In this document: positions 8,387 to 63,236 of the stretch, piece by piece
How positions within the stretch are numbered: position 1 is the stretch's first letter
How the letters are laid out: each line of letters starts with the position of its first letter
Origin: Eledone cirrhosa
Lineage: Eukaryota
Reading direction: 5' to 3'
Assembly: GCA_964016885.1 (NCBI GenBank)
Contig: OZ024741.1
Coordinates: 163,866,001-163,930,000 of the forward strand
DNA length: 64,000 nt
Made by a program: the position numbers and the translations under genes
The notes under the pieces: model-generated
Told to the model about the DNA's origin: nothing
Databases searched by the model: none
The model's input: the letters and a program-made list of their open reading frames with translations, nothing else

Positions 8387-8480
8387 CCCTCGTCCTGCTA
8401 TATCAAGCGTTAACCTAATATATCCCTTCCATGTACTGTACCGATTGTGTTTACGCTTTACATATGTATATATATATATA

Positions 8481-9031: not shown

Positions 9032-9138
9032 GTATATATATATATATACATATATATATACATGTATATATACATAATCAAGGTTTAGCAAATAAGAAAA
9101 AGTTACAAAATAAATTTTAAAAAATTCACTGTACTCAC

Positions 9139-16314: not shown

Positions 16315-16832
16315 CCAGCAATTTCTCTGTCTGTCTGTCCGACAGTGGAAACACGTGCGTAGAGAAACAGTGAGAGTGAAAGAAAGAGACAGACTACGAG
16401 AGGGGGGTAGCGGGAGGGAGAGAGAGAGAGTGAATAGACGCTAAAACACGTGCTACAGAAACATTACCTTCCCCTCTCCTCTGACTTTGGTCACTGAGGC
16501 CGAGGGAATCGCGCTGAGCGCGTCATAATGACGTAATGCAGACAGCTATTATATGATACAGACAGATATTATAAGATACAGACAGATATTATAAGGGCGC
16601 AACGTTATATCTATGTATCTATCTAAAAAGAAAGACTATGAATTATATAGAGAGAACGCTAAATCGCCTAATGCGGTCCCTAGGGCATTAAAAATTTGAA
16701 ATAAATTTTGCTCAAAACACTCACAGGACCATAAGTATTACATGTCTAAAGTTTGAAAACAATCGGTTGGATGGTTCTCAAGTTTTAGTGAGCTGACAGA
16801 CAGACAGACATTCTCTGTTTTAGATATATAGA
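16315..16832 (-). mobile_element. Non-autonomous Helitron (minus strand)
   Basis: Starts TCTATATATCTAAAAC...(GTCT)n and ends CTGG-T; about 300 bp is inverted-homologous to the neighbouring plus copy. Confidence 0.6.
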
Positions 16833-16869
16833 CTAGCAGAAAACCGCCCCACGGGTGGTTTTCTGCTAG

Positions 16870-17744
16870 TATATATATATAAAACTGAGGATGTCTGTCT
16901 GTGTGTGTGTGAGTTTGAATCCCTAAAACTAGAGAAGCACCCTACCCACTGTTTTCAAACTTTACACGTGTAATACTTATGTTTCAGTGAGTGTTTTGAG
17001 CAAAAGAAGCTTCAAATTTTCAATGCCTTAGGGACCGCATTAGGTGATTTAGCGATCTCTCTATATAATTCTTAGTCTTTCTCCTTTTAGATAGATACAT
17101 ACATATAACGTCGCGCCCTTATAATATCTGTCTGTATGTCTGGCTGTCTGCATTACATCACTTCCGTGAAGATGTCTGTCTGTGTGTGTGTCTGTGAGTT
17201 TGAATCCCTAAAACTCGAGAAGTACCAAACCGATTTTTTTCAAACTTTACACGTGTATTACTTATGTTTCCGGGAGTGTTATGCACATACAAAAATTATC
17301 ATTTTATCTCCTAGCGCCCCCATTAGGTGAAAACCTACATTTTCTAAGCTTTTTATGGGGGGTTTTTTTAGGCGTTACGTCAGACCGATTTCCTTGAAAT
17401 TCATACCGTGAGAAAAGAAAATCCAACTTTTTCATGGCATTAGGTGAAAAACTTCATTTTTTCAGCCTTTTAGGGCTTTTCGGAGGCGTTACGTCTAGCC
17501 GATTTTCCAGAAATTTCAAGGCATGTTATGCACATAAAAAAAATTTCTTTTCTTGATCTCCTAGGTGAAATCCTGCATTTTTCCTGCTTCATCGAGGAAA
17601 ATCTTAAAGATTATCCAGCCATCAGAGTATTCGGTTTACTTTCTTTACATATTGTCCAAGCATGCAGTTTTTCCACGATTAGGTCCTTTGGCGGCTCGCA
17701 TTCCAAAATACCTTATCTCGTGAAACGCCGGGTACCACTGCTAG
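16870..17744 (+). mobile_element. Non-autonomous Helitron (plus strand) with duplicated 5' module
   Basis: TATATATAAAA-(GTCT/GT)n 5' end; 3' CGTGAAACGCCGGG...CTAG-T end; 5' module repeated near 17170. Confidence 0.72.
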
Positions 17745-35898: not shown

Positions 35899-38130
35899 TT
35901 GAGTCTCAGTCATTGATGTTATTTAACTGGAAAGTTTGTTGAAATGACAGACATGTGATAGGTCCATAATTGGTAATATCATTACCCTTGGTTCGGTCTT
36001 TCATTACCAGAACTGTGGTACCTTTTGTCAACCACCCTGGTACCTCACCTGACATCAAGCAGTCATTGAACGTGGATGTCAATTTCGGGTGGAGGGATGT
36101 TTGTTGGTATGCTTGTTCACTAATCTCCTTTTGTACTGTCTCAATCCACACTGCCTAATCATTATGTTCAACATCCTCTCCAGAATGTCTTAGTCTGTTC
36201 CGCCTCAGGGACCAAGTCGTTGCCTCTTTCTTTCCCTTCAAGCTGTCCAAACATCTTCTGGCTGTTGTCAAACATGCGGTTCTGTCTATACTGACTGACT
36301 CTGCTCTCGTTTCGCCTAATCTTTGCACTCTTTGCTACAATGCGTTGCTTCAGCTCCTCTATGATAATATTTAGCTTTTTCCTCCTACTTTTGTACTTTA
36401 TTTCCAGTCTAATTTTAGTGTCTATGTTTTGTAGTGTCCCATTCAGTAGGGACTCAAGCTTTCCAATGTCATTTCTCATTTCCTTGATTTGACCATTCAG
36501 TCGTTTCCTCCACCAAGGTTCTGATCTTTCTTGTTTGTTGTTTCCTCTCGTTTTTATTCCAAGTAATTTCCTCGTCGCATTTGCTGTTGCTTTGAGGATA
36601 TTGTTGCACTGGTGAAGGCTCCTCGCCTCAAGGTATGGGAGGACTTTGTTTGCCTTAGCTGTTGTTTCTTTTAACTTTTTCCTGTCTACAAATCTTAGGT
36701 TCATAGGTTTCCCACTATCATTGTTCATTTCATCTACCACTAAGTTTAGGATATCTTGTCCTAGCCCGTCAGCATTCCTTTCCTCAATGGCCGTATCTTT
36801 GTTCCAGATGTTATTTATTGCAGCATTCAGATCATTGTCTGCTTCTGAGGCTTCCTCCGTTCTCTCAACCTCTTCAACTTCATTTCCCACTGGCTCGTTT
36901 GCCTGGCATTCTCCACTCTCCATTTCCAATCTAATCTATCTGTTGAGTGCCTCCAGTCCCAGCTCGCTTATCCACCCATTAGTTCTTATTACCCGAGCCT
37001 GCCCTGCCAATTTTTGTTCATCTAATTTAAATAGACCCATCTCGTTCCAGATGCTATTCATCCGTTTCCTATAGCCTTTTTCCTTGGGGTTACTCTTCAG
37101 GTAACATTGCATAACAGTTCTATTCAATTCTTTCGTCCAGTTGGTTCTGGTCCCTTTCCTTCTTCTTCCTCCAACACTAGCAGTATTTGGATGACAGCCA
37201 GGTCCCTGCTGCTGGGCCAGGGAACAACTGCTGGGTGAGAATCTGTCACATGACATTCCAGTCTCCACTTCACCGTTATTCGAACTGTTTAGGTTCGACA
37301 TTTAAACACTCATATCGAGGAATGGTGAATGTATGGTTACATAACCACCGGTCATTTAATCACTCCCAGTGATTTGATCATCCCCGGTGATTTTAACGTG
37401 GCACTATCACGCTGTAGACGAACATAAATAAACAAACAAACAAATAGGTAAAAACCTAAAAAAATAAGCATAAGTTTCATTGTAATGTAATGTTTGAATG
37501 TCTGACTTAGTTTTTTTGTTTGTTTGTTTGTTTTTCTTTTCTTTTTTCTTCTCTTTACGTTTTTCGTTGCTGCTGTGCTGTTTTGATTTTGATTTTTGAT
37601 TTTTTGATGTTTTGACCGGGTCATCAAATCAGTCTATTTATATCTTTTGATGCCTTCCTCGCTTAGTGGGAATACTACGATACCTCTGTCTTAGCAGGAG
37701 GTAGTGAGAGAGAATAGCGACGGTAGCGATAATGAGGCAGTGGTGGTGGTGGTGATGATGTGATCGTAGTACTGTAGTGATGGTGTTGAAGTTGAAGTAG
37801 AAATAGAAGTTGGAGTAACTTGGCTAGATTTTTTTGGTGTGGTAGTGGTAGTGGTGATGGTGGCGTTGGTGGTGTTGGTGCTGAAATTATTTGCCTGTCT
37901 GTCCACGTAGCCATTTTCCTCTTCTTTGACTATAACATTTCTGATCCAAAGTTAAATATTAAATATTGGGGCCCTATGTCATAATGTGATGCATTGTCGC
38001 TTGCTGAGAGTGAAAACTGAAATCTTATGTTTCATTTGTAATAAGAATTATTCTATCACAGTTGTTTTAAATATGTAAAAATCAAAAACTTACGGGAGCG
38101 ATTCCATCACGATATATCCACCATGTGCGT
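35899..38130 (-). mobile_element. Dong/R4-clade LINE copy 1: both ends present, about 1.9-kb internal deletion of RT/RLE
   Basis: Homologous to 38168-42441; the 3' terminal 50 bp joins directly to the NYxPITCL region; flanked by (TAA)n. Confidence 0.9.
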
Positions 38131-38167
38131 TTTTCTTCCCTATTATTATTATTATCATTATTGTTCT

Positions 38168-41100
38168 TTGAGTCTCAGTCATTGATGTTAGTTAACTGGA
38201 AAGTTTGTTGAAATGAATATCAAGCCACTACCTGCAGCCTCAGATATTCAGGACGTATCGGAGGGTTCTTGCTGTTCCCAGCAAGCATGCCTTTTGAAGC
38301 GTTCCAAAAAGCGTGGCGGGGCCAATTTTCTTTAACCATCCCTGGAAACCTTTTGAGATAGTACCTAGTGCGCCTATGACAATCGGGACCACTTTGACTT
38401 TATGGCAGTTTCAAATCCTTTTTACCTCCCACTTTAAGTCCTGGTATCGGTTAATTTTCTCCCTCTTCTTGTCTTGCACTCTCGTGTCGAATGGGCAGGC
38501 CACATCCACAATCAGGCACGATCTTTTTTCCTTGTCCAAAACCACCAGGTCAGGTCTATTGTGTTCCAGTTTCTTGTCCGTCTGTATCCTAAAATCCCAC
38601 AGCACCTTCACCTGATCGTTTTCTATCACCGACTCTGGCTTATGCTCATACCACTTCTCAGAATGTGGTAAATTGTTTACTTTGCATGGGTGCCAGTGGA
38701 TCACCCTGCCCATCACATCATGTCTCCAGCCCTTATAGTGAGACTGGGCTAGGTGTTTACACTCGGATACAATGTGAGCCACAGTCTCCTCTCTCCCTCC
38801 ACAGATCCTGCACAGTGGGCTAGCCTCCTCCTTGTAGGGCCTGCTCTTGCGCAGCCATTAGCATTCCTTCTGTAGCCTTTTTAAGGTCTCCTCTTTTCCA
38901 CCAGTTCCATGTCTGTGGATCTCTGAATTCAGTTTTCTCAAAGAAGGTACTATGAAGGGATTTTTCCTGAAGCCTGCTCTTTCTCCTTGATGTTATTTCC
39001 TCCTTGGACATCCCCTGGCCTATTGTCCCCTCCTTCAGTACAGTTCTGAGCATTGGCTCCCTACTATCAGTCACGTATTTGTGTAGGTTGTTTTTCTCCA
39101 TCTGAACAAAGTCATCTATGCTGATAAGACCTCTTCCACCTTCAGATCTCCGTAAGTAGAGTCTATCGACATCACTCCTCTTGTAGAACATGTTGTAGAT
39201 AGTCAATAGCTTCCTAGTTTTCCTATCCATTTCTTTTTGTTCAGCAACATTCCATCTCAGAATTCCCGCACTGTACCTAAAAATAGACACAGCTCGGGAA
39301 TTTACTGCACTTATGGCATTCCTACTGTTCAGGTTTGACTTTAATACGCTCCTTACTCTCCGAATGTATTCAGATCTTATGAATTCCTTCATGTTTTTGT
39401 TCTTGATGTCATCAGCCTCCAGAACACCCAAATACTTGTATCCTTCTTCAGTGTCAATTTCCTTTATCATCTCACCTGTTGGTACCTGGATTCCGTTGCT
39501 TCTGCTCAATTTACCCCTCTTCATCACAAGGACTCCACACTTACTAATACCAAATTGCATACATATATCATTGCTGAAAATACGGACAGTGTCAACAAGC
39601 ACATCCAACTCCTTCTCACTCTTCCCCAAGAGCTTAAGATCGTCCATGAAGAGGAGGTGATTGATGGTAAGCTCTCCCTTTCCCAACTTGTATCCTGCTC
39701 TCACTTTTCGCAGTATAATGGTCAGGGTCATCAGGGCAAGGACAAACAACAGAGGGGACAGACTATCTCCCTGGAAGATACCTCTCTTGATCTTCACGCC
39801 AAGGATTCTCCAGCTGATGTTAACTTTGTTTTCCAGGACTTCATATTTTTGCCCAACAACTGTCTGATGTTATCTGCTACCTTGAAGATCTCTAGGCTTT
39901 TGGTGATCCAAGAATGAGGCACCATGTCAAACGCCTTTTTGTAGTCTATCCATCCCATGGCAAGACCAGTGTGTCTCCTCTTGAAATTCCTCATTACCAT
40001 CTTATCAATAAGTAACTGGTCCTTTGTACCACGGGACTTCTTTCGGCATCCTTTCTGTTCGTCCGGTAACAAGTTGTTTATGTGGAGGTGATGGTAGATT
40101 TCCTCAGACATAATGCTTGTCAACAGTTTCCACATTACGGACAGACATGTGATAGGTCTATAGTTGGTAACATCATTACCCTTGATTCGGTCTTTCATTA
40201 CCAGAACTGTGGTACCTTTTATCAACCACTCTGGTACCTCACCTGACATCAAGCAGTCATTAAACATGGTTGTCAGTTTCGGGTGGAGGGATGTTATATT
40301 TTTAATCCAATACCCCTGCACACTATCTGGGGCTGGTAATTTCCAGTTGGTTAGTTTTTTAGCCTGCCCCTTAAGAGTTTCAACTGTGATACTCAAATCA
40401 GTTTGTTGGTGTGCCTGTTCACTAATCTCCTTTTGTACTGTCTCAATCCACAATGCCTAATCATTATGTTTAACATCCGGCTCCCATATTTCTCTCCAGA
40501 ATGTCTTAGTTTGTTCCGGCTCAGGGATCAAGTCGTTGCCTCTTTCTTTCCCTTCAAGCTGTCCAAACAGCATCTTCTGGTTGTTGTCAAACATGCGGTT
40601 CTGTTTATACTGACTGACTCTGCTCTCGTATCGACTAATTTTTGCACTCTTTGCTACAATGCGTTGCTTCAGTTCCTCTATGATAATATTTAGCTTTTTC
40701 CTCCTAATTTTGTACTTTATTTCCAGTCCATTTTTAGTGTCTATGTTTTTTAGTGTCCCATTCAGTAGGGACTCAAGCTTTCCAATGTCATTTCTCATTT
40801 CCCTGATTTGACCATTCAGTTGTTTCTTCCACCAAGGTTCTGATCTTTCTTGTTTGTTGTTTCCTCTCGCTTTTATGCCAAGTAATTTCCTCACCGCATT
40901 TGCTGTTGCTTTAAGGATATTGTTGCACTGGTGAAGGCTCCTCGCCTCAAAGTATGGGATGACTTTGTTTACTTTAGCTGTTGTTTCTTTTAACTTTTTC
41001 CTGTCTACAAATCTTAGTTTCATAGGTTTCCTACTATCATTGTTCAATTCATCTAATACTAAGTTTAGGATATCAACCAAATTTTGTCCTAGCCCGTCAG

Positions 41101-42440
41101 CATTCATCTCCTCAATGGCCGTATCTTTGTTCCAGATGTTATTTATTTCAGCATTCAGATCATTGTCTGCTTCGGATGGTTCCTCCGTTCTCTCAACCTC
41201 TTCACCTTCATTTCCCACTGGCTCGTTTGCCTGGCATACTCCACTCTCCATTTCCAACCTAATCTCTCTGCTCAGTTCCTCCAGTTCCAGCTCGCTTATC
41301 CACCCATTAGTTCTTATTACCCGAGCCTGCCCGGCCAATTTTTGTTCATCTAATTTAAATAGACCAATCTCGTTCCAGATGTTATTCATCCGTTTCCTAT
41401 AGCCTTTCTCCTTGGTGTTACTCTTCAGGTAACATTGCATAACAGTTCTATTCAATTCTTTCGTTCAGTTGGTTCTGGTCCCTTTCCTTCCTCTTCTTCC
41501 TCCGACACCAGCAGTATTTGGTTCACAGTCAGGTCCCTGCTGCTGAGCCAGGCAGCACCTGCTGGGTGAGAGTCTGTCACATGACATTCCAGTCTCCACT
41601 TCACCGTTATTCGAACTGTTTAGGTTCGACATTTAAACACTCTTATCGAGGATTGGTGAATGTATGGTTACATAACCACCGGTGATTTCATCACCCCCGG
41701 CGATTTTAGTGTGGCACTATCACGCTGTAGACGAACATAAATAAACAAACAAATAGGTAAAAAAAAAAAAAAAAAAGAATAAGCATAAGTTTCATTGTAA
41801 TGTAATGTTTGAATGTCTGACTTAGTTTTTTCTTTCCTCCTTCTCTGTCTGTCTGTTTGTTTTTCTTTTCATTTTTCTTTTCTTTACGATTTTCGTTGTT
41901 GCTGTGCCGTTTTGATTTTGATTTTTGGTTTTTTTATTTTTTGACCGGGTCATCAAATCAGTCTATTTATATCTTTGATGCCTTCCTCTTTTAGTGGGGG
42001 TACTACGATGCATGTCTTATCAGGAGGTAGTGGGAGAGAATAGCGGCGGTAGCGATAAGGAGGCAATGGTGGTGGTGATGTGTTCGTAGTACTGTAGTGA
42101 TGATGGTGTTGAAGTTGAAGTAGAAATAGAAGTTTAGGTAACTTGATTAGAGTTTTTGGCGTGGTAGTGGTGATGGTGCCGGTGGTGGTGTTGGTGGTGA
42201 AATTATTTAGCCATTTTGCCATTTTCCTCTTTTTCGACTGTAACATTTCTGATCCAAAATTAAATATTAAATATTGGGGCCATATGCCGTAGAGTGATGC
42301 GTTGTGGCTTGCTCAGCGTAAAAAAATGTAATCTTATACGTCATTTGTAATAAGAATTATTCTATCATAGTTGTTTTAAATAAGTAAAAATCAAAAACTT
42401 ACGGGAGCGATTCCATAACGATATATATCCACCATGTGCG

Positions 42441-42441
<1 letters not shown>
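38168..42441 (-). mobile_element. Dong/R4-clade LINE copy 2, near full length but disabled
   Basis: ORF from ATG 41632 to 38237 in pieces: NYRPITCL, IDYKKAFDMVPH, GIFQGDSLSP, FMDD, YKYLGV, CRIC..HIVSEC knuckle, RPDLV..D...K..RY RLE; (TAA)n flanks. Confidence 0.93.
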
Positions 42442-42472
<31 letters not shown>

Positions 42473-42483
42473 GTTATTACTCT

Positions 42484-42922
42484 TTGAGTCTCAGTTATTG
42501 ATGTTAGTTAACTGGAAAGTTTGTTGAGATGAATATCAAGCCACTACCTGCAGCCTCAGATATTCAGGACGTATCGGAGGGTTCTTGCTGTTCCCAGCAA
42601 GCATGCCTTTTGAAGCGTTCCAAAAAGCGTGGCGGGGCCAATTTTCTTTAACCATCCCTGGAAACTTTTTGAGATAGTCCCTAGTGTGCCTATGACAATC
42701 TGGATCACTTTGACTTCATGGCAGTTCCAAATCCTTTTTACCCCCCACTTTAAGTCCTGGTATCGGTTAATTTTCTCCCTCTTCTTGTCTTGCACTCTCG
42801 TGTCGAATGGGCAGGCCACATCCACAATCAGGCACGATCTATTTTCTTTGTCCAAAACCACCAGGTCAGGTCTATTGTGTTCCAGTTTCTTGTCCGTCTG
42901 TATCCCAAAATCCCACAGCAAC
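42484..42922 (-). mobile_element. Dong/R4 copy 3, 5'-truncated RLE end
   Basis: Near-identical to 38168-38603; bounded by (TAA)n on both sides. Confidence 0.92.
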
Positions 42923-42965
<43 letters not shown>

Positions 42966-46132: not shown

Positions 46133-46163
<31 letters not shown>

Positions 46164-46203
46164 GATATTAATAAATGGAAACTATATTTATAAAACCATA
46201 TTT

Positions 46204-46266
46204 ATTTCATTATATATATTTCAAGGATACCAAGTTACATTATGGTATGCCTTCATCAGACAAAAT
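46204..46266 (-). ncRNA. Type I hammerhead ribozyme (intact core)
   Basis: ATTTTGT-CTGATGA-AGGcATACCA...TGGTAT-CCTt-GAA-ATATATAT-A-ATGAAAT. Confidence 0.78.
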
Positions 46267-46759
46267 ACAATATATAACAGTGTTATAAATAGACATTGAC
46301 GTACCCCTTTAAAAAAAATTGACCGTTGTTTTTGGAGGCCATCAGGATAGTGATTTGTTTACTTTAGTAAGTCATAGTGTTAAGAGTAAGGAAAAAGATG
46401 GAGAGAGAGAGAGAAACGTGGAAAAAAGAAAGGGAGAGATAGATAAAGAAAAAGAAGAAAACAAAAAGAAAAGAGAACAGAGGAAAAATAACGGGGAGAT
46501 ATCAAACCATCAGACAGAGTTTGATATCTCCCCGTTATTTTTCCTCTGTTCTCTTTTCTTTTTGTTTTCTTCTTTTTCTTTATCTATCTCTCCCTTTCTT
46601 TTCTCCACGTTTCTCTCTCTCTCTCCATCTTTTTACTTACTCTTAACACTATGACTTACTAAAGTAAACAAATCACTATCCTGATGGCCTCCAAAAACAA
46701 CGGTCAATTTTTTTTAAAGGGGTACGTCAATGTCTATTTATAACACTGTTATATATTGT

Positions 46760-46822
46760 ATTTTGACTGATGAAGGCATACCATAATGCCACTTGGTATC
46801 CTTGATATATATATAATGAAAT
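46760..46822 (+). ncRNA. Mirror hammerhead, mutated (GAAA->GATA)
   Basis: Same fold as 46204-46266 with an A14 substitution and a stem I mismatch next to the core. Confidence 0.6.
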
Positions 46823-47081
46823 AAATATGGTTTTATAAATATAGTTTCCATTTATTAATATCGTATATCTACTCCAAATATTTGTCGAGTGCTTTATATC
46901 AGTTATAAAAATATTTGCTTGTTGTATCCCAACAATTTAAATAAAACTTTTGCATATATATATATATGTATATATATATGTGTCTGTATATGTATGTATG
47001 AATGTATAATATAACATATATATATATGTGTGTCTGAAGGCGTATGGCTGAGTGGTTAAAGAATGATATAAATATGTAAGT

Positions 47082-47124: not shown

Positions 47125-47301
47125 TACTTTTCCAAACACGAAGAAAAGACAGAGAAGAACAAAAATAGTCATTGTGAAAGTAACATAACATTTGACAATA
47201 GAGCTTTGAGAATTAATTAATATATATAGACACACATATACATACATACATACATACATACATACATACATACATACATACATACATACATACATACATA
47301 C

Positions 47302-47910
47302 ATGGTGGCTGCCAACTCGTTTTCGAGTACGGCCACTACTTTATATCCATGTAAGAGAACCCCTACCAATGCGCTGAACGAGTGCGACTATTTAGTCCAG
47401 CCAGCGACTTGAAAACTCTAGTACAAACACTACACTTGTGACAATTATTGACACATAGTGCTGGGCCCATGGTACCATGTGACGACAAGTGCAGAGAGAT
47501 CTCCAGATACAAAGCAATGCCTGTGCCGTGAAGCTTTTATAGTGAGCAAAGGCACTGCACAAAGCCAGTCCCACTCTCTTAACCAAGATGATATTTACCA
47601 AAAAGAAGAACAAGTCAACATCATTAGATACCATCAGGGTTGCAGGTGTTATATCATAGTTTTCCTTCTCCTAGAATTCTGCCTTGACAAAGGCTAAGGG
47701 GTCATCTCTCCCGGTGATTTTGGATGGCCATTGACTCTTAAGAGCTCCTTTGCCCTTTGACAGGTTTTGTTTTTAGTCCTGCAGGATGTCCAAAGTCACC
47801 CTACTCACCAAGAAACCTTGGTGGGGTTGCCAGTTTAGTCGCCAACGACCCGACCATGGGACAGGTTGAACTGGGATACATGTTGCCAGTAGCACCAACT
47901 GGTGACCTGA
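47302..47910 (-). mobile_element. Bipartite non-autonomous RTE derivative, longest copy, (TATG)n tail
   Basis: About 610 bp, homologous to 8481-9031; structured 5' part plus RTE-like Zn-finger end and 3' stem-loop. Confidence 0.8.
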
Positions 47911-47983
47911 CATACATACATACATACATACATACATACATACATACATACATACATACATACATACATACATACATACATAC

Positions 47984-48501
47984 ATGGTGTCTGCCAACTC
48001 GTTTTCGAGTACGGCCACTATTTTATATCCATGTAGGAGAACCCCTACTGATGCGCTGAGCGAGTGTGACTTTTTAGTCCAACAGGCGACTTGAAAACTC
48101 TGGTACAAACACTACACATGTGACAATTACTGACACATAGTGCTGGGCCCATTGTACCCTGTGATGACAAGTGCAGAGAGATCTCCAGATATAAAGCAAT
48201 GCCTGTGCCGTGAAGCTTTTATAGTGAGCAAAGGCACTGCACAAAGCCAGTCCCACTCTCTTAACGAAGATGATATTTACCAAAAAGAAGAACAAGTCAA
48301 CATCATTGGATACCATCAGGGTTGCAGGTGTTATATCAGAGTTTTCCTTCTCCTAGAATTCTGCCCTGACAAAGGCTAAGAGGTCATCTCTCCCGGTGAT
48401 TTTGGATGGCCATTGACTCTTAAGAGCTCCTTTGCCCTTTGACAGGTTTTGTTTTTAGTCCTGCAGGATGTCCAAAGTCAGCCTCCTCACCAAGAAACCT
48501 T
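47984..48501 (-). mobile_element. Bipartite RTE derivative, tandem 5'-truncated copy
   Basis: Direct repeat of 47302-47819, separated by (CATA)n. Confidence 0.8.
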
Positions 48502-48715
48502 AGATACATACATTTATATATATTGTACTGTTGTTTATCCAAGGCTTGCACGAATAAACTCTACGGCTTCATGAACCTAAAAATATTGGAGGACTCTTTC
48601 GATTGTTTTGGATCCCTAATTGCTGTATACCTAAGTTACGCATTCAACGTTTCCCACTTTGACAAATTTAATCGTCAAATGTTCCATTATAATCGCTTAT
48701 ATATATATATAATCG

Positions 48716-48788
<73 letters not shown>

Positions 48789-49294
48789 ATATCTTCGATG
48801 CTAATGCCAACTACTATAATAATGAGTTATCTAGGGCTGGATATCCAGACAAAATTAAATACACTAAGGATATATATCTTGGCAGAACTTATAGTAATGT
48901 AGCTAGTTATAAGCATACCAGTAACATAAAGAGTAGATCTAGATATAAGAATATACTTATTATTAATATCCCTAAATTATTTTTTAGGGCTTTAGATAAC
49001 ATCTTCCCCCCTTCACATATTTATACCAAGATTTTCAATAAACATACCATTAAATTCTCATATTCCACTACTTCCAACTTTTCAAAAATTATCTTTAGAC
49101 ATAATTCTAAAATATTAAATAATAACTCATATGCATCCAAGCATGAGAGTCATAATAATAACACTCTAAGGACCGACGTCAATGTAAACTCTAGGCAAAG
49201 TAACTTAAATATAAATATGACTTCAAACGTATCTTTGAGGAATGCTTCAAATAGTAACGTAAATCACCTCCTTTAGTGAATAGTATCTCCTTTA

Positions 49295-49798
49295 GTGAAT
49301 TCCACCACCCCAGTTCCTATTATTAATAATCCAGGGCCACTGGTAAATAACTCTGTTAATAATTTTAATCGTAAATGCCTTATTAGAACTAATTGTCCTC
49401 TTAGTAATTTCTGTCTCGATAAAAACTTAATATATGAATGTAAAGTGGTAACTTGTACTAATACCTATACCTACATTGGCTCTACTTCAACTTCTTTTAA
49501 AGCAAGACTCTATAACCATTCTTCTACATTTAAATATCCACTTAAAAGAACCAGCACTGCACTCTCAGAACTTATTTGGTCCTTAAAAGACAAAAACATT
49601 AATTACGAAATCTCTTGGCGTAAAATTTGCAACGCTTTACCTTACTCCAACGCTTCCATATCTAGGGTCTGTAATTTATGTCTAACTGAAAAATTTACCA
49701 TTATCTCGAATTTCAACTCTCTAATAAATAGACGTATGGACTTATTTGCTATCTGTATTCATAAATCTTTTAAGACCTTTCACAAAGTATACAGCTAA
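49295..49798 (+). pseudogene. GIY-YIG endonuclease domain of the PLE
   Basis: LIY/YIG motifs, conserved R, H, E and N, CxxC; out of frame with the upstream thumb. Confidence 0.88.
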
Positions 49799-50177
49799 TG
49801 TCCTATAACTTATTCTACGATTAACGGTTAATATTTTTTACACATATATAATTTACACATATATTTTCACATATTTTTCTCACATATTTCATTATATTCT
49901 ACAATCTATTAATCCACTTTTCTTTGCATTATTAAGCCTTTCCCCTTCTTTCTCTATTGACGTTAATTTTTTCGTTCAAACCTTCGTAGATTTTGTAAAC
50001 AATCTATGACGTCATATGTATTTTTACGTTTAAACCTTTCTAGCTATTTCCTTTACTTACTTGTTGATATAAAATATTAAATTAATAATCTAATAGTATA
50101 CCCCACATATATAAATTTTTAATAGTAATTTTTAATTTTGACATAGATGGACTATTCTTATTTTTATTTATTATTTT

Positions 50178-50361
50178 GGATTGGCAGTATCGGTAGAGGG
50201 TCGGACGCCATGCTTTCCAGCATAGTTACGTCCCTTTACGATCTGAGTTCAAATCCCGCCGAGGTTGACTTTGCCTTTCATCCTTATGGGGTCGATAAAA
50301 TAAAATACCAGTAATGCACTGGGTAATTGCTGGTCTTGTGCCTAAAGTAGAAACAATTATT
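50178..50361 (+). mobile_element. tRNA-derived SINE nested in the PLE 3' UTR
   Basis: Same family as 3787-3978. Confidence 0.88.
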
Positions 50362-52822: not shown

Positions 52823-53012
52823 TTATTCCGGGTTGAATCGGGGGTAACCATAGTAAGTAAGGTACTCAATACTTAGCAGAGTATAAATGTTTTAATATAG
52901 AAGAGCTTCTACAGGACTAGAACTGTTTCATTCGTGAGAAATCATGAGGAAGCTGGCTCTGATGATTTCTAACGGATGAAACAGTTCTAGTCCTGCAGAA
53001 GCTCTTCTATAT
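52821..53012. mobile_element. Mini fold-back element: about 50-bp arms (52895-52945 / 52962-53012), tail, HHR-like core at 52959-52981
   Basis: GGCT-CTGATGA-tTTC taac GGAt-GAAA, similar to the 22007 motif; cleavage-site register imperfect. Confidence 0.72.
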
Positions 53013-53013
53013 G

Positions 53014-53085
<72 letters not shown>

Positions 53086-53282
53086 TGTAGATAAATCTAC
53101 CAAGAGTTTACGGTAGTGTCCAATCCGTATGAAGAACTCAATGTAATCCGGATATCATGGAAAGAAGAGATGCAATGAAAAATTACTTTCGGTGAAAGAT
53201 AAACGGAATACAGAGTCAAGATAAAATATTTAAAAAATAATGAATAAAACAATGAAACAGTTCCTTATATTAAACAAAAAAG

Positions 53283-53437
53283 TTCATTATTTAACGATCG
53301 TTTCTAGGATATATATGTGTTAGAATTGGCATGCATATTCAACAGATCTATGTACAAAATTATACAAAATTATACAAACTATCAAAATTAAATATACATA
53401 CCAAACACATATATATGCCGTCTTCAGAAATAATGAA
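53283..53437 (-). ncRNA. Type I hammerhead with very long stem II (left arm)
   Basis: Reverse complement of 62114-62268. Confidence 0.82.
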
Positions 53438-54197
53438 ATATATTTATTGATAATAACAACAATTCAAAATTTCAGGTCCGTTTGGGAACAGAGTTCAAAT
53501 TGACCAATGAAAATACAAAAAATTTTATGCAGTTTGGTGTGTGTATATACATGTAATTAATTTCTTACACATATTTACATGAAGATATATGTTCACATGC
53601 ATACGCATGCCAAAAAGATGTATGCAAATACAAAAATTCAAGGCTAATGTCTCTGTAAGTCTATAATCCACAGATAAAATGCGTATAGACACATAAATAT
53701 GAAATAAATGTATAGACACATTCATATACTCACACATATTCGTACACTCACACACACACGCGCGTATATGCATAAACATACACATAACTACGAACATACA
53801 TACACACACACACACCCACACACATATATATGTGCATATAGTATTATCATAAGCATATGGACATTAATGCACGCACATAAACACTGCCACACATATTTAG
53901 ATCAGGATACAGAAATTAGGTGGGAGGGGGGGAGAGGTCAGTATTCAACGGTTTCGGCAGACTGCTTATTTATAGATGTATCTATAAACTTAGAAATAAA
54001 AAGAAAAGAAAAAGAAAAAAGAAAAAAGAAATATATCAAGAAAATATATATATATATATATACATGTAAAGTTATATTTAAAATTGTTGGGTTACAACTA
54101 GTAAATATTTATAACTGATATAAAAGCACTCGACAAATATTTGGAGTATATTTACAATATTAAATAAATGGAAAACTATATTTATAAAACCATATTT

Positions 54198-54261
54198 ATT
54201 TCATTATATATATTTCGGGGCTATCATATTAACAATATGCTATGCCTTCATCAGACAAAAT
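54198..54261 (-). ncRNA. Type I hammerhead ribozyme
   Basis: Mirror of 54429-54492 with intact core. Confidence 0.75.
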
Positions 54262-54428
54262 ACAATATAAACAGTTTTATAGATAAATATATTCGACATA
54301 CCGTAATAAACATCAACTTCATTTGAAGAGGTTTAGTCTAGCAGTCTGCTAGACTAAACCTCTTCAAATGAAGTTGATGTTTATTACGGTATGTCGAATA
54401 TATTTATCTATAAAACTGTTTATATTGT

Positions 54429-54492
54429 ATTTTGTCTGATGAAGGCATAGCATATTGTTAATATGATATCCCCGAAATATATATAATGAAAT
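54429..54492 (+). ncRNA. Type I hammerhead ribozyme
   Basis: ATTTTGT-CTGATGA-aGG..CATATT gtt AATATG..CC-GAA-ATATATAT-A-ATGAAAT. Confidence 0.75.
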
Positions 54493-54526
54493 AAATATGG
54501 TTTTATAAATATAGTTTTCCATTTAT

Positions 54527-54559
<33 letters not shown>

Positions 54560-54969
54560 TCCACACATACACACACACACACACACACATATATATACAT
54601 ATACATATATATATACACACATATACACACATACATATATACATACACATACATATACACATATATACACACACATATACATACACACACATATATATAC
54701 ATACACATATACATACACACACATATATATATACAAACAAGTAAAATATAAAGTATACATCGATATACATACATATAGACATATAAATAAATACACACGC
54801 ATACACACACATACATATACATACATATACATACACATATATATAAACACATACATACACATACATATACATACACATACCATATAAATACACATACACA
54901 TACATAGACGCATACATATAGAGACACATACATATACACATATAAATACATAGACACATACACACATAA

Positions 54970-55026
<57 letters not shown>

Positions 55027-55082
55027 TTTTACACACATATACACATACACGCATACATATATATATATATACACATACATGC

Positions 55083-55133
<51 letters not shown>

Positions 55134-55205
55134 CATACATATATATATATACACTCACAACACTCGTATATATATACACACTCATACATATACACACATA
55201 TACAT

Positions 55206-55256
<51 letters not shown>

Positions 55257-55399
55257 CATATATATACAGTCACACCTACATACATATATATATATAAATA
55301 CACTCATATATATACACACATATACATACATACCCACATATAAATATATATATATACATAAATATATATATATATATACACACATACACACATACACAT

Positions 55400-55442
<43 letters not shown>

Positions 55443-55900
55443 TACATACACATACATACACATATACACACATACATATATACTCACACACACACACTTA
55501 CACATACATACACATACACATATATAAAGATATATATACACACACACACACACACATATATAATATAATAAATATATATATATATATATATACATATATA
55601 TACATATACATACATATATACATACATACATACATATACATACATATATATACACACATATACATACACACATACATACACACACACATACATACACACA
55701 CATACATACTCATACATAGACATAGATATATACTCACACACACATACACACTTACATATACGCATATATACAAATACATACACATCCATATATGCGTACA
55801 TACATACAAACACCACTACACGCTCACACAACTCAGACATACAAAGAAAAAGGTATTTACATATACATATATACACATATAAATAGAGATACATATACAC

Positions 55901-55939
<39 letters not shown>

Positions 55940-56039
55940 CCCACACACACGTACAACCATAAACACACATACAAACACATACATACACATATACATACAT
56001 ATATATACACACACACAAAGACACACATACATATATATA

Positions 56040-56091
<52 letters not shown>

Positions 56092-57403
56092 CATACACAT
56101 ACACACACACATATATAGACATGCACACACATACATATACATATATGTATATATATATATACACACACACACATACACACACACACATACATATATATAC
56201 ACACATACATACACACACACATATATATACATACATATACACACATCAACTACAAATATACAATATATATATATATATATATACACATGTATTTTTATAC
56301 TTACAAATAAACACCCAAACATATATACACCTACCTACATATACATACATACATACACGCTTACAAATACAAATAATAATAGTAGGGGGGGAAAGGGGGC
56401 GGGGAGAAGGGGATTATAGTAAATATATGTTTCAAGAAACATAGAATATTAATCTGTATTTGGATCTCAATATGCGTTTACATAGTTTCAGTATTAGGAA
56501 ATGCAAGAAAGAAGGCAAAATTATGCATTTCAATATAAGTATACCATTAATTATAGGTTAACTAAACTAAAGATAGTTAATATATTGATTTCTAAGGTGT
56601 AAATTACTTAGGTTTATAATATTTGAAGCAGAATATTGAAGTTAAATAGTAGTAGAGTATTAATTATAGTATAACTAAATTAAAATTATTAACGTTATGG
56701 TATCAATATTAGGAAATGAATTTAGTAATAGGGAAAAAACAAATAAAGTATTACATCGGTAGTAGAATATAAATTATGGGTTAACTAAATTAAAAATTAT
56801 ATATTAATTTCTATAGTATATGTTAATTAGGTATATAATAAATAAAACAGATATTGTATTTTATCAATAGTAGAATATAATTATATGTAAACAGAAATTA
56901 AAATTAATACATACACATATACATATACATACATATATATATACACATATATATACATACATACACATATATACATACATATACATATTTTTTCAAAAAT
57001 TGCAAAGAATATATTAACTAGGTATACATCCAAAACCCATCCCATTCTATGATTACATGACACTCTGCAATCCGTCTGTATTAGGATACTAATTTTAAGC
57101 CAATTAAATTAAATTTTTAGGTTGACCAAATTTAAAACCAAATTATAAATATATTTCTAAAATGTATATTAATTAGGTCTATAATACTAAAAATTATTTC
57201 TCTGTCATTGAATACACGATATTTTGTTATATTTTATCTGTAATTTCCCCCCCTACTATTATTATTTGTATTTGTAAGCGTGTATGTATGTATGTATATG
57301 TAGGTAGGTGTATATATGTTTGGGTGTTTATTTGTAAGTATAAAAATACATATATGCGCATGCAAATAAGGGTGTATGATTGTGTGTATATATATATATA
57401 TAT

Positions 57404-57457
<54 letters not shown>

Positions 57458-57692
57458 ATGTGTGTGTGTACGTGTATGTATATATATATATGTGTGTATG
57501 TATGTGTGTGTGTATATATGTGTATGTATATGTATGTCTCTCTATATATATGTGTATCTTTATATCTATGTGGGTATATGTGTGTATGTACATGTATGCA
57601 CATGTATATGTCTATGTGTATATGTGTGTATGTGTATATGTCTACGTATGTGCGCATATATATGTGAGTGTGTGTGCGTGTATATATATGTA

Positions 57693-57739
<47 letters not shown>

Positions 57740-57795
57740 TATTTATTATTATAATATAATATATGTATATATATATATATGTGAAAATATGTATA

Positions 57796-57828
<33 letters not shown>

Positions 57829-58087
57829 TGTATATTTGTAGTTGATGTGTGTATATGTATGTATATATATGTGTGTGTGTATGTATGTGTGTATATATAT
57901 GTATGTGTGTGTGTATGTGTGTGTGTGTATATATATATATACATATATGTATATGTATGTGTGTGCATATTTGTCTGACTGTGTCTATTAATTTTTTTTT
58001 TTTTTTTTTTTTTAATATATATGTATGTGTATGTATGTATGTATGTATGTGTGTGCATGTCTATATATATGTGTGTGTATGTGTATG

Positions 58088-58147
<60 letters not shown>

Positions 58148-58251
58148 TATATATATATATGTATGTGTGTCTTTGTGTGTGTGTATATATATGTATGTAT
58201 ATGTGTATGTATGTGTTTGTATGTGTGTTTATGGTTGTACGTGTGTGTGGG

Positions 58252-58290
<39 letters not shown>

Positions 58291-58596
58291 GTGTATATGT
58301 ATCTCTATTTATATGTGTATATATGTATATGTATATACCTTTTTCTTTGTATGTCTGAGTTGTGTGAGCGTGTAGTGGTGTTTGTATGTATGTACGCATA
58401 TATGGATGTGTATGTATTTGTATATATGCGTATATGTAAGTGTGTATGTGTGTGTGAGTATATATCTATGTCTATGTATGAGTATGTATGTGTGTGTATG
58501 TATGTGTGTGTGTATGTATGTATGTGTGTATGTATATGTGTGTATATATATGTATGTATATGTATGTATGTATGTATATATGTATGTATATGTATA

Positions 58597-58633
<37 letters not shown>

Positions 58634-58644
58634 TATATTATATA

Positions 58645-58675
<31 letters not shown>

Positions 58676-58760
58676 CTTTATATATGTGTATGTGTATGTA
58701 TGTGTAAGTGTGTGTGTGTGAGTATATATGTATGTGTGTATATGTGTATGTATGTGTATG

Positions 58761-58822
<62 letters not shown>

Positions 58823-58862
58823 ATGAAATATAAGAATCAAAGAACTGTTCAAAACATTATTG

Positions 58863-58909
58863 TGCTTACAGCTGTTTCCTCCAAACCGAGGTTTGGATTC
58901 TTCGGAGCA
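58863..58909 (-). ncRNA. Type I hammerhead (U4C variant), inverted pLTR copy
   Basis: Reverse complement of 60393-60439. Confidence 0.75.
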
Positions 58910-59188
58910 ATTTATTAATGCATGGACAGTTATATGACCTCCTTTTCAGCCGAGAGACATACCAATACATATTCAAACATTGATACATATTCAAACATTG
59001 TGGGTCAACATTCATTACAAAATTTAGAGTGGCAGTACACACTTCGAGATTACATTTATATTAATAGGTACAATCAAAAATCAAAGATATAGGTTAAAGT
59101 ACAACATGAAGATAAGTGGTTATATAGTGCAAATGTTATATGTGTGGCACGCATGTGCGTCTTGTTTATATAGTGTGGCAGAGAGATA

Positions 59189-59679
59189 GCAACGGCAGTA
59201 ACAATAGAAATAACACTAGTATAAGTAATAACACCAGGGTTGTCAACCTGAACACCCAAAATCCTATATCCACCACACAGACTTCCGCATTGCATTATAA
59301 CCAGCGGACTAACGCACAGAATAATTGTAACTGTAGAGCTAATAGAACCTGCCCTTTAGATAAAAAATGCCTAACCAAGGATGTCATATACTCATGCACA
59401 GTCACGACTAATAACTCTTCAGAAACCTATGTAGGCTCCACTTCTAACTGCTTCAAAATTAGATATAACTCGCACATCCACTCGTTCAAAAAGCACAGCC
59501 TAGCCAACTCCACCTCACTTTCTAGCTACATACACTATCTAAAATCTAAAAATAAACCATACACACTCAAATGGGAAGTGATAGGCAGCGCGACCTCGTA
59601 CAAACCACCTAATAAATTCTCTATAGTTAGTACACTTTATGCTTTAAAAGTCTCTCTTGGAAGGTGCACCTCACCATAG
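59189..59679 (+). pseudogene. GIY-YIG endonuclease remnant with CxCx5C linker
   Basis: CNCRANRTCPLDKKCL..DVIY...YVGST..FKIRY..H..SF...TSLSSYI..LK...LKW; the C-terminal CxxC/E/N part is missing. Confidence 0.86.
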
Positions 59680-60392
59680 AATTTAGGGTCCATATTGGGA
59701 CACATTTTAATGGCTAGATATAGAAACCCCAGAGTTACCTCCCCGCATGCATTAACTCCCCTTAGCCACACACACACTTCCGGTATTCAATGGCGTCTCT
59801 CGAAACGTAACAACCTCCTGTATCGAACTAAAGAACACCAGACTACGATCTCTAACTGGATTGTCGTGGATTATGTGAAAGGCATATAATCGAAATATAC
59901 ACTCCCTTGACCATGAAAATGCCGAAGTACATGAATTACTTGACATCCCTGCGTTGTGCATCTCCAATACTTATAACACTTTTAATGCTTGCACTATCTT
60001 TAATGCTTATAATATTTCTCCACACACAGACTACATCAATCATATAAAGACTTTGCCACCAGATCTACCAACCTAACACTCTTATTTACCTACCTAAGTG
60101 CCTCTACCACACATATCTCTCTGCCACACTATATAAACAAGACGCACATGCGTGCCACACATATAACATTTGCACTATATAACCACTTATCTTCATGTTG
60201 TACTTTAACCTATATCTTTGATTTTTGATTGTACCTATTAATATAAATGTAATCTCGAAGTGTGTACTGCCACTCTAAATTTTGTAATGAATGTTGACCC
60301 ACAATGTTTGAATATGTATCAATGTTTGAATATGTATTGGTATGTCTCTCGGCTGAAAAGGAGGTCATATAACTGTCCATGCATTAATAAAT

Positions 60393-60439
60393 TGCTCCGA
60401 AGAATCCAAACCTCGGTTTGGAGGAAACAGCTGTAAGCA
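60393..60439 (+). ncRNA. Type I hammerhead (U4C variant)
   Basis: TGCT-CCGAAGA-a-TCCAAACC tc GGTTTGGA-g-GAA-ACAGCTGT-A-AGCA. Confidence 0.78.
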
Positions 60440-60809
60440 CAATAATGTTTTGAACAGTTCTTTGATTCTTATATTTCATATAACTGCTCTGTAAATCATC
60501 TGATGTTTTTACATTGAGCTACTTAACTTACTGGTAATAAGGTAGTAATACATTACTGCCTACCACTATTTAGGGTGTGTGTAAAATACTTACAACTGCT
60601 TAAGGTTTTGTGTTTACATAACCATAAATAGTATAACTAATACTATATATATATATATGTGTGTGTATGTGTATGTGTGTATGTGTGTATATATATATAT
60701 ATATTTATGTATATATATATATTTATATGTGGGTATGTATGTATATGTGTGTATATATATGAGTGTATTTATATATATATATGTATGTAGGTGTGACTGT
60801 ATATATATG

Positions 60810-60862
<53 letters not shown>

Positions 60863-60934
60863 ATGTATATGTGTGTATATGTATGAGTGTGTATATATAT
60901 ACGAGTGTTGTGAGTGTATATATATATATGTATG

Positions 60935-60965
<31 letters not shown>

Positions 60966-61433
60966 GTATATATGCATGTATGTGTATATATATATATATG
61001 TATGCGTGTATGTGTATATGTGTGTAAAAAAAAAAAAATATATATATATATATATATGTGTTTATGTGTGTATGTGTCTATGTATTTATATGTGTATATG
61101 TATGTGTCTCTATATGTATGCGTCTATGTATGTGTATGTGTATTTATATGGTATGTGTATGTATATGTATGTGTATGTATGTGTTTATATATATGTGTAT
61201 GTATATGTATGTATATGTATGTGTGTGTATGCGTGTGTATTTATTTATATGTCTATATGTATGTATATCGATGTATACTTTATATTTTACTTGTTTGTAT
61301 ATATATATGTGTGTGTATGTATATGTGTATGTATATGTATGTGTGTGTATGTATATGTGTGTGTATATATGTGTATATGTATGTGTATGTATATATGTAT
61401 GTGTGTATATGTGTGTATATATATATGTATATG

Positions 61434-61464
<31 letters not shown>

Positions 61465-61471
61465 ATGTGTG

Positions 61472-61507
<36 letters not shown>

Positions 61508-62113
61508 CTTGATATATTTCTTTTTTCTTTTTTCTTTTTCTTTTCTTTTTATTTCTAAGTTTATAGATACATCTATAAATAAGCAGTCTGCCGAAACCGT
61601 TGAATACTGACCTCTCCCCCCCCCCTCCCACCTAATTTCTGTATCCTGATCTAAATATGTGTGGCAGTGTTTATGTGCGTGCATTAATGTCCATATGCTT
61701 ATGATAATACTATATGCACATATATATGTGTGTGGGGGTGTGTGTGTGTATGTATGTTCGTAGTTATGTGTATGTTTATGCATATACGCGCGTGTGTGTG
61801 TGAGTGTACGAATATGTGTGAGTATATGAATGTGTCTATACATTTATTTCATATTTATGTGTCTATACGCATTTTATCTGTGGATTATAGACTTACAGAG
61901 ACATTAGCCTTGAATTTTTGTATTTGCATACATCTTTTTGGCATGCGTATGCATGTGAACATATATCTTCATGTAAATATGTGTAAGAAATTAATTACAT
62001 GTATATACACACACCAAACTGCATAAAATTTTTTGTATTTTCATTGGTCAATTTGAACTCTGTTCCCAAACGGACCTGAAATTTTGAATTGTTGTTATTA
62101 TCAATAAATATAT

Positions 62114-62268
62114 TTCATTATTTCTGAAGACGGCATATATATGTGTTTGGTATGTATATTTAATTTTGATAGTTTGTATAATTTTGTATAATTTTGTACA
62201 TAGATCTGTTGAATATGCATGCCAATTCTAACACATATATATCCTAGAAACGATCGTTAAATAATGAA
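62114..62268 (+). ncRNA. Type I hammerhead with about 115-nt stem II domain (right arm)
   Basis: TTCATTATTT-CTGAAGA-cGGc-ATATATATGTGTT...AACACATATATAT-CCta-GAA-ACGATCGT-T-AAATAATGAA: perfect 10-bp stem I. Confidence 0.85.
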
Positions 62269-62322
62269 CTTTTTTTGTTTAATATAAGGAACTGTTTCAT
62301 TGTTTTATTCATTATTTTTTTA

Positions 62323-62410
<88 letters not shown>

Positions 62411-62417
62411 CATATTT

Positions 62418-62450
<33 letters not shown>

Positions 62451-62465
62451 TATATATACATACAT

Positions 62466-63231
62466 ATAATATAATTTAGAGTTTACACTCAAGGGGTCAT
62501 TTACAATTATTTTAGCTCTAAGAAAGAAGCATTTCTGAGCAGTACAATACAAGTTAATATAAATTAATATATGATAAACACTTACGTGTTTTTATTGTAA
62601 TTGACAATAAATTAGCTAGAATGAAATATCTTAATTCAAATACATATAGTCTGCCTGTATCGATCTAAAAAATAATAAATCAATACTCACAAACACATAT
62701 CGGCAAAAGGCCTTGGTACCTAGACAAGTTTAAATTTCAAAATTCAAACTGTTTCCGCAGATCAATCCGAACTTCAAAATGTAAACATGTTTCACAAAGT
62801 ATGGTATAATAGTGAAATAATTGATTAATAGTGAAATAATTAATTTTCTGTGTTTATTAATAGGTACCCAGAAAAATTAAGTACTTCACCTCGGAAAAAT
62901 ATCTAAGGTCTGGTTAACGTACGCGAAAATACACGAGGTTTTGCACACGAATTCTTCCAGCCCTCTAGCCATCTCATACTCATGGCGCTAGAAATAACAG
63001 CCGTTTATATGGGATTACAAATTCAGCTCGACCGAGGGAGCAGTAATATAATATAATTTAGAGTTTACACTCAAGGGGTTATTTACAATTATTTTAGCTC
63101 TAAGAAAGAAGCATTTCTGAGCAGTACAATACAAGTTAATATAAATTAATATATGATAAACACTTACGTGTTTTTATTGTAATTACAATAAAAACACGTA
63201 AGTGTTTATCATATATTAATTTATATTAACT

Positions 63232-63236
<5 letters not shown>
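62466..63236. repeat. 137-bp direct repeats (62466-62602 / 63048-63184) ending in a perfect 108-bp palindrome (63129-63236), between (TA)n tracts
   Basis: Direct reading; palindrome centre gtaa|ttac at 63182/63183. Confidence 0.9.

Follow-up and report, generated by a model that had tools for sequence, protein, structure and literature searches.

Penelope-like elements (PLEs) of the Hydra clade are the closest described systems to the locus reported here. The supplement of Craig et al. (2021, PMC8557442) lists 27 Hydra families of 1080–3045 bp; this work and the others cited below are drawn on in part. A tail, an inverted 5′ copy, partial tandems and (TA)n targeting have already been published for PLEs and for Hydra, and the origin of the tandem and inverted structures of PLEs and their microsatellite bias are named as open questions in the same paper. 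For Poseidon_Ac from Anolis carolinensis, cutting and extension of both strands, two internal start sites bounding the tail and a predicted dimer have been reported in vitro (Frangieh et al. 2024, PMC11167929). Retroelements and MITEs (miniature inverted-repeat transposable elements) are also known as sources of microsatellites, the reviewed cases being poly(A) tails and short internal tracts (PMC3812793). Here we describe a 9-kb inverted repeat in a 64,000-nucleotide stretch of the Eledone cirrhosa genome (contig OZ024741.1, positions 163,866,001 to 163,930,000, referred to as the window). With a probability of roughly 0.75, this repeat is one truncated insertion of a Hydra-clade PLE, likely produced by reverse transcriptase (RT) priming from both strands of a cut (TA)n site.

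The sequence-only reading of the window had described an inverted repeat of about 9 kb starting at 53087. The repeat is real: its arms, 53221–56393 and 57245–62331, were recovered by self-BLAST and by global alignment of the left arm with the reverse-complemented right arm. The start needs correction, as 53087–53220 is an unpaired tail and the repeat begins at 53221. The arms differ by 10 substitutions in 2649 paired columns (59 columns lying outside the arms were excluded from a raw alignment of 2708 columns with 17 substitutions) and by many small slippage indels. The unique outer blocks, 53221–54068 and 62331–61480, share 99.1% identity. The structure consists of the following features.

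53008–53086, no strand: (TA)n target tract of the left flank; tailed ends of other copies also adjoin (TA)n.
53087–53220, minus strand: unpaired 134-bp tail of the host PLE, equal to the sequence directly upstream of the 5′ untranslated region (UTR) in full-length and tandem copies.
53221–54048, minus strand: unique 3′ block (pseudo-long terminal repeat, pLTR) of the tailed arm, with a hammerhead-like motif near 53283–53437.
54049–56393, minus strand: the tailed arm's compound TA/CA microsatellite mosaic, which has lost 90 bp at 56120/56121 and 453 bp near 56280–56287 by deletion.
56394–57244, minus strand: unpaired spacer, the AT-rich 3′ region of the element; only the longer, tailed arm extends this far.
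57244/57245, no strand: head-to-head arm junction without microhomology, blunt; the tailless arm ends within a G-tract.
57245–61499, plus strand: microsatellite mosaic of the tailless arm, with the ancestral state at 57352–57810 and 57969–58058.
61500–62331, plus strand: unique 3′ block of the tailless arm, with a hammerhead-like motif at 62114–62268 and a predicted cut after 62258.
62332–62473, no strand: (TA)n target tract of the right flank, a TA repeat.

Two inserts distinguish the arms. The left-arm insert, a hairpin, corresponds to an alignment gap of 485 bp (54049–54533) whose exact ends are ambiguous within TA, and the right-arm insert, a second PLE, to a gap of 1861 bp (58800–60660). 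Both had been noticed before, together with about 450 bp missing on the left, which measures 453 bp (57352–57371 plus 57378–57810); a further right-only segment of 90 bp, 57969–58058, had been overlooked. Plain (TA)n had been claimed opposite each insert and is present in the partner arm at both sites. These empty sites do not reveal the target-site duplications, because TA tract lengths slip.

The host family is dispersed throughout the genome. The outer 500 bp gave 1837 first-look candidates, the best 40 of them at 98–100% identity and many arranged as inverted pairs, and the spacer gave 2029, the best 40 at 97–100%. DNA was fetched around 38 of the best 40 outer-block matches (the remaining two are the window), and later samples comprised 9 stretches around full-length matches and 11 diverged copies. 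The 830-bp block recurs genome-wide, and at other loci the same microsatellite mosaic and, upstream, an RT-endonuclease open reading frame (ORF) accompany it, in agreement with the check proposed by the sequence-only reading. In the window copy, the ORF stop would fall about 210 bp beyond the spacer, and the copy ends before the ORF. The ORF is intact in locus L051, where it encodes 812 aa from the first Met and lies upstream of the same 3′ region; six intact ORFs (812–813 aa) were found among the 9 stretches around full-length matches. The product is an RT with a C-terminal GIY-YIG domain, the two being separated by an N-rich insert of about 100 aa, and contains the motifs RWR (37), DKT (115), YRDD, CxCx5C (673), YIG (707), CxxC (771) and CxH (799). 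Its predicted structure has a predicted local distance difference test score (pLDDT) of 80, and the top seven fold matches are telomerase RTs. A homologue search returned 119 unnamed homologues. Pfam reported no family in the host ORF and a sub-threshold GIY-YIG only in the nested PLE fragment, Rfam at the gathering threshold had no match in the window, hammerhead included, and a PDB sequence search gave nothing useful for the ORF. No expression evidence was obtained.

Whole units also occur in head-to-tail arrays (7008 bp, and four of about 6650 bp), each unit with an intact ORF and a mosaic. In sense orientation, a unit begins with the tail, followed by a 153-bp 5′ UTR and the ORF. Next come about 1.1 kb of AT-rich sequence, to which degenerate copies of the ORF end contribute, then the mosaic and the hammerhead-bearing 830-bp block, after which the tail follows again. 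The non-coding 3′ region is about 4.3 kb long and holds 1.7–2.6 kb of microsatellite mosaic (2.3-kb compound microsatellite). In the sampled copies, tandem arrays included, the mosaic landmarks recur in unchanged order and at unchanged spacing wherever an arm is long enough to contain them, which indicates that the mosaic is part of the element. The arrays lie at L126–L128 (G000:C6:49.52–49.55 Mb) and L124–L125. The ORF of the array of four units has 99% identity to that of L051, whereas the 3′ blocks reach just 90–91%; the non-coding region thus changes, or is exchanged, much faster.

By its motifs and by an alignment compared by eye, the host is assigned as an autonomous Hydra-clade PLE, and the window copy as a single 5′-truncated insertion. 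The family has the single RT plus GIY-YIG ORF, 5′ truncation, partial tandems, inverted 5′ copy and one-sided tail of endonuclease-bearing PLEs, and the motif set and insertion in (TA)n of the Hydra clade. Its unit of 7008 bp or about 6650 bp exceeds the length below 3 kb that is typical, not diagnostic, of that clade. Naiad was rejected because the host endonuclease is C-terminal whereas that of Naiad is N-terminal, and Neptune because the host linker is CxCx5C whereas Neptune has a CX2-5CxxC linker and a CCHH finger.

The outer ends of the copies are fixed at two positions 134 nt apart, and both adjoin (TA)n. Exact matches to an end plus TA number 4376 for the tailed form genome-wide and at least 2295 for the tailless form, as the search pattern for the latter misses variants. 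The two ends are strictly paired. A tailed end is matched with a tailless one in each of the 18 complete pairs of the first sample, to which the window belongs; six of six further pairs at later loci show the same, giving 24/24 in all fetched loci. An unselected test was made on the first 99.6 Mb of contig C1. The ends entered were the first 100 tailed ones listed and the 57 tailless ones of the same interval, with pairing within 20 kb. All 30 inward-facing pairs, L025 among them, were mixed, compared with 46% expected under independence. Neither arm is consistently the longer one: among the 18 pairs it is the tailed arm in nine, the tailless in eight, and in one the arms are about equal. Arms measure between 29 bp and 6.7 kb. 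Only one arm is present in eleven copies (six tailless, five tailed), which end in TA-rich sequence, and for two tandem-type copies no outer end was found. Inner junctions, read by eye, have overlaps of 0–3 nt, TA overlaps or short fillers; that of the window is blunt, and that of L037 carries a 33-nt inverted templated filler.

Paired arms are also alike in sequence. In 12 pairs they differ at 0–3 sites in 570–780 bp, compared with a median of 1.3% between loci, and they have variants in common that no other sampled arm shows. These private variants led to the rejection of separate source copies for the two arms. Four arm ends (window 57245 and those in L028, L036 and L046) stop at or just before two G-tracts of the complementary DNA (cDNA) strand. 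A G-quadruplex stall at these four ends is a possible, post hoc explanation.

We propose that the GIY-YIG domain would cut both strands of a TA tract, after which cDNA synthesis would start from one DNA 3′ end at the tail end and from the other at a site 134 nt upstream. Both start sites would probably lie on the same RNA and be reached through a dimeric protein. The two cDNAs would extend toward the 5′ end of the element and stop independently (in the window, counted from the tail end, after about 4.2 and 3.4 kb), and their ends would be joined head to head. Afterwards, two other (TA)n-targeting elements would have entered TA tracts delivered by the host, and the left arm would have lost 90 and 453 bp. 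The fact that either arm may be the longer, together with the private single-nucleotide polymorphisms (SNPs) common to both arms, speaks for separate priming of two cDNAs, one from each strand, and their head-to-head joining. We infer one RNA rather than two. A wider proposal, to which we give somewhat less than even odds, is that a Hydra-clade lineage grew, in its 3′ region, a multi-kilobase array of (TA)n sites targeted by itself and by other PLE families, a self-feeding loop delivering up to two sets of landing pads per jump, and was inserted by an asymmetric dimer using both start sites of one RNA, one per cut strand. If the part on the asymmetric dimer is true, the tail and the inverted repeat of PLEs arise in a single step.

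The second arm could instead have been made by self-priming, in which one cDNA of the same element would turn back on itself, by folding or by a template switch, so that its own 3′ part is copied. This mechanism has been proposed from palindromes at PLE inversion junctions (PMC3846280); it accounts for the private SNPs common to the arms, and the templated filler at the L037 junction fits it. A copy of a tailed cDNA, however, cannot exceed its template, yet the tailless arm is the longer one in 8 of 18 pairs, and a copy of a tailless cDNA cannot acquire a tail. Each end type also occurs alone, and most junctions lack a palindrome. We consider self-priming improbable. A similarly unlikely variant keeps the two primers and lets them use two separate RNAs, the likeness of the arms then coming from one dominant source at a time or from later gene conversion. 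Multimeric transcripts could indeed arise from the tandem arrays, and a few variants are present in one arm only and yet recur at other loci. The family nevertheless contains several haplotypes of similar age, and all 12 clean pairs match internally; two free RNAs alone also do not explain the 30/30 tailed-tailless pairs.

Two further explanations place the repeat outside retrotransposition, and both are very unlikely. Dispersed inverted pairs, precise outer ends and TA targets would suit a foldback-type DNA transposon whose terminal inverted repeats are long and microsatellite-rich. Such a transposon does not account for asymmetric ends, arms of 29 bp to 6.7 kb, an internal ORF for an RT-endonuclease, head-to-tail tandem units or the common single-arm copies (a transposase-bearing partner with these ends was not searched for). 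The structure could also be a local inverted duplication or an assembly artefact of fold-back reads, a view helped by the lack of read support for the junction. The arms differ, however, by independent inserts, deletions and substitutions, their outer ends equal the two fixed ends of the family to the base, and 23 other fetched loci have the same layout with different junctions. A contig set under another organism label likewise has a tailless end running into TA (run X4, place 2079).

Several points count against a single insertion primed from both strands. No intermediate or activity of the proposed mechanism has been observed, and four runs of other samples, consisting of short contigs or restriction-site-associated DNA (RAD) reads, listed no read or contig across 57244/57245; family contigs in these runs proceed with normal sequence at this position, and such an absence carries no evidential weight. 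The first samples were the best-scoring matches and are non-random, and the tailless ends are undercounted as stated above. In a thirteenth comparison, at L049, the arms are 47 sites apart, the partner being a tandem unit without a found outer end. Gene conversion between arms could mimic the variants common to both. The start sites of the Poseidon PLE in vitro show no strand difference, whereas the strict pairing found here requires one (PMC11167929). Finally, the arms of the hairpin nested in the host differ from each other at 1 of about 170 sites, a divergence not below that of the host, so that the order of hairpin after host rests on parsimony and not on a clock.

The sequence-only reading had assigned to each arm microsatellite sequence and about 830 bp of unique sequence with a hammerhead-like motif of long stem II, and both the motif and its fold were found. 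The motif is of type I; in the right arm, stem I is formed by 62114–62123 and 62259–62268, the core lies at 62124–62130, stem II is about 115 nt long and GAAAC is at 62247. The fold has z = −5.67, and none of 200 shuffles was equally stable. The core is intact in 72 of 76 arms and stem III is identical in 74 of 76; the predicted cleavage triplet is GUU. As the outer ends lie 207 nt (tailed) and 73 nt (tailless) beyond the predicted cut, the ribozyme is not what sets the ends. The fold of the tail region was not significant (z = −1.41), nor were the folds of the hammerheads in the two nested elements. A dispersed repeat of 190 nt, which we take to be SINE-like (short interspersed nuclear element), lies directly 5′ of the hammerhead between duplicated 14-bp ends in L129 (1540–1720), L137, L143 and other diverged copies. 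Many host copies carry it, and nine relatives lie free in the window, for example at 3786–3976 and 50177–50360.

The two inserts had been taken for mobile units targeting TA, which agrees with their belonging to multi-copy families with ends in (TA)n. Both have the tail-plus-inversion layout.

54062–54534, minus strand: nested non-coding hairpin, with an 85-bp tail (54062–54146) and a palindrome (54147–54543).
58816–60645, plus strand: nested second, younger Hydra-type PLE, with a tailless arm (58820–59188), an endonuclease fragment (59186–59620) and a tail (60483–60645).

The hairpin contains a hammerhead core at 54436 (+) and its mirror. Its family has 26 near-full-length matches at 94–100%, the window copy included, with a common turnaround point and ends in (TA)n, and 1384 exact tail ends genome-wide. 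Arm variants in the family are mostly mirror-symmetric. The members at L052–L075 have a fixed centre, whose middle base is T in the subfamily with the long tail and A in that with the short tail. The family may represent a MITE-like derivative of a PLE that two-ended priming regenerates. The same host tract holds the hairpin at three genomic places, as three hairpin variants in three host haplotypes; as the closest host relatives also lack the hairpin, independent insertion is preferred and inheritance with the host was rejected. Given the 1384 tail ends in the family, no insertion hot spot is claimed.

The arms of the nested PLE, 58820–59188 and 60114–60482, are identical over 369 bp. The element has an internal deletion of about 800 bp at 59619–59623 and a hammerhead-like motif with a changed core at 60397. 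Members of its family are 99.3–100% identical to each other, and their RT is 49–51% identical to the host RT. At 7 of 15 tailless ends of this family (window 58816–58825; L088, L089, L092, L094, L095, L097), 1–3 extra copies of the first 7–9 nt are present. Like the primer, the repeated piece terminates in ATAT, suggesting slippage and renewed priming at initiation in the manner of telomerase.

Of 28 other arm rows, 27 contain the 90-bp segment that distinguishes the host arms; L041, the exception, has normal landmark spacing. The 90-bp loss lies between 17-bp direct repeats. Since the 90-bp and 453-bp segments are present in other arms, their interpretation as insertions or subfamily polymorphisms was rejected. 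They represent the normal state, and the left arm has lost both.

It had also been suggested that a PLE can carry and duplicate kilobases of microsatellite and thereby create targets for itself. The first part stands in a refined form: the microsatellite is a constant component of the element's 3′ region, as opposed to a flank acquired locally, and its duplication is the usual two-armed PLE insertion. As for targets, all 12 nested inserts counted by hand in 47 sampled arms lie in the mosaic, which makes up 45% of the sampled length (P about 6e-5, or 3e-4 without the two of the window), and two of the 12 are copies of the host element itself (L025, L035). This shows that the carried TA tracts are used as targets; use above that of other TA tracts is not implied. 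The young mosaic contains about 27–30 (TA)5+ tracts, and the window outside the element 95 (TA)6+ tracts in 55 kb. The genome-wide reach of the suggestion is limited. An exact mosaic landmark occurs 100 times, and the young form amounts to about 100 arms or about 0.2 Mb of the 3.0-Gb genome, so it does not explain the microsatellite load of the genome. In a diverged clade, the interval between the same landmarks is 0.9–1.4 kb, compared with 2.2–3.1 kb, and the arms are older in three of four measurable pairs (1.5–2.3% apart compared with 0.1–0.5%). An ORF tree, which is unrooted, separates short-mosaic from long-mosaic copies with full support. The mosaic is likely to have grown over time, with the reservation that the tree has no root.

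The window contains further repeats. Fold-back elements lie at 46155–46871, 16576–17137, 551–1936, 52882–53025 and 63129–63236, the first of these being related at 87% to the nested hairpin, with arms that are longer. The endonuclease end of another Hydra-type PLE, 40% identical to that of the host, is at 48713–49798. A 2.5-kb direct repeat of 90% identity (36099–38608 and 40401–42924) carries broken non-LTR RT frames on the minus strand and represents two decayed copies of a long interspersed nuclear element (LINE). A 590-bp family with (TACA)n/TA ends is present at 8468–9032, 47229–47819 and 47909–48501, in tandem in the window, and is also nested in the host mosaic at L025 and L028.

The long microsatellite cargo looks new, and the tail-plus-inversion layout is already published. 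In the literature searched, with subscription journals, Repbase and Dfam outside the search, neither a PLE with kilobases of the repeat that it targets nor any mention of strict pairing was found. Neither the cargo nor the pairing is mentioned in the parts drawn on from a 2026 Octopus vulgaris repeat paper (PMC13282606) or a retrozyme preprint (10.64898/2026.07.22.740005), the latter without its supplements. The pairing provides a testable genomic rule: one tailed and one tailless end per insertion, with either arm the longer and both of one haplotype. As the kilobase-long arms are identical at the outset, each pair serves as an internal clock and as a control for microsatellite slippage and nested insertion. 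The host is a retroelement that copies kilobases of dinucleotide repeat, which then attract further elements, and annotation will mistake such copies for foldback DNA transposons or mask them as simple repeats.

Compared with the Hydra clade, for example Hydra-1_Obim, the host has the same single ORF with RW(K/R), DKT, the CxCX5C linker, GIY-YIG, CxxC and CxH, as well as the 3′-end hammerhead, (TA)n insertion, the one-end tail, the inverted 5′-truncated copy and partial tandems (PMC8557442). It differs in its unit of 6.65–7.0 kb, whereas the published families measure 1.1–3.0 kb, and in its tail of 134 nt instead of 30–40 (PMC8557442). Its own features are the non-coding 3′ region of about 4.3 kb with the mosaic, the stem II of about 115 nt and the N-rich insert of about 100 aa. 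Judged by eye, it belongs to a different family than Hydra-1_Obim. Like Poseidon_Ac, which represents another clade, it has two fixed start sites that bound the tail, neither of them at the hammerhead cut, and an AT-rich target; end pairing and inverted arms are not addressed in the parts of that work used here, whereas pairing in the host is strict (PMC11167929). The host ends, in addition, have about 3 nt in common with the TA target. With Penelope of Adineta vaga, the host shares inverted pLTRs, an optional tail, long spacers before the 3′ pLTR, N-rich ORF inserts and the nesting of one PLE in the simple sequence of another (Arkhipova et al. 2013, PMC3846280). The spacers there vary by copy through host capture, whereas here one microsatellite mosaic is inherited, and self-priming was proposed there, whereas the arm lengths found here argue against it (PMC3846280). 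Like the known microsatellite-source elements, the host delivers mature microsatellites at insertion; unlike them, it delivers kilobases of a dinucleotide mosaic that is of the element's own target type (PMC3812793).

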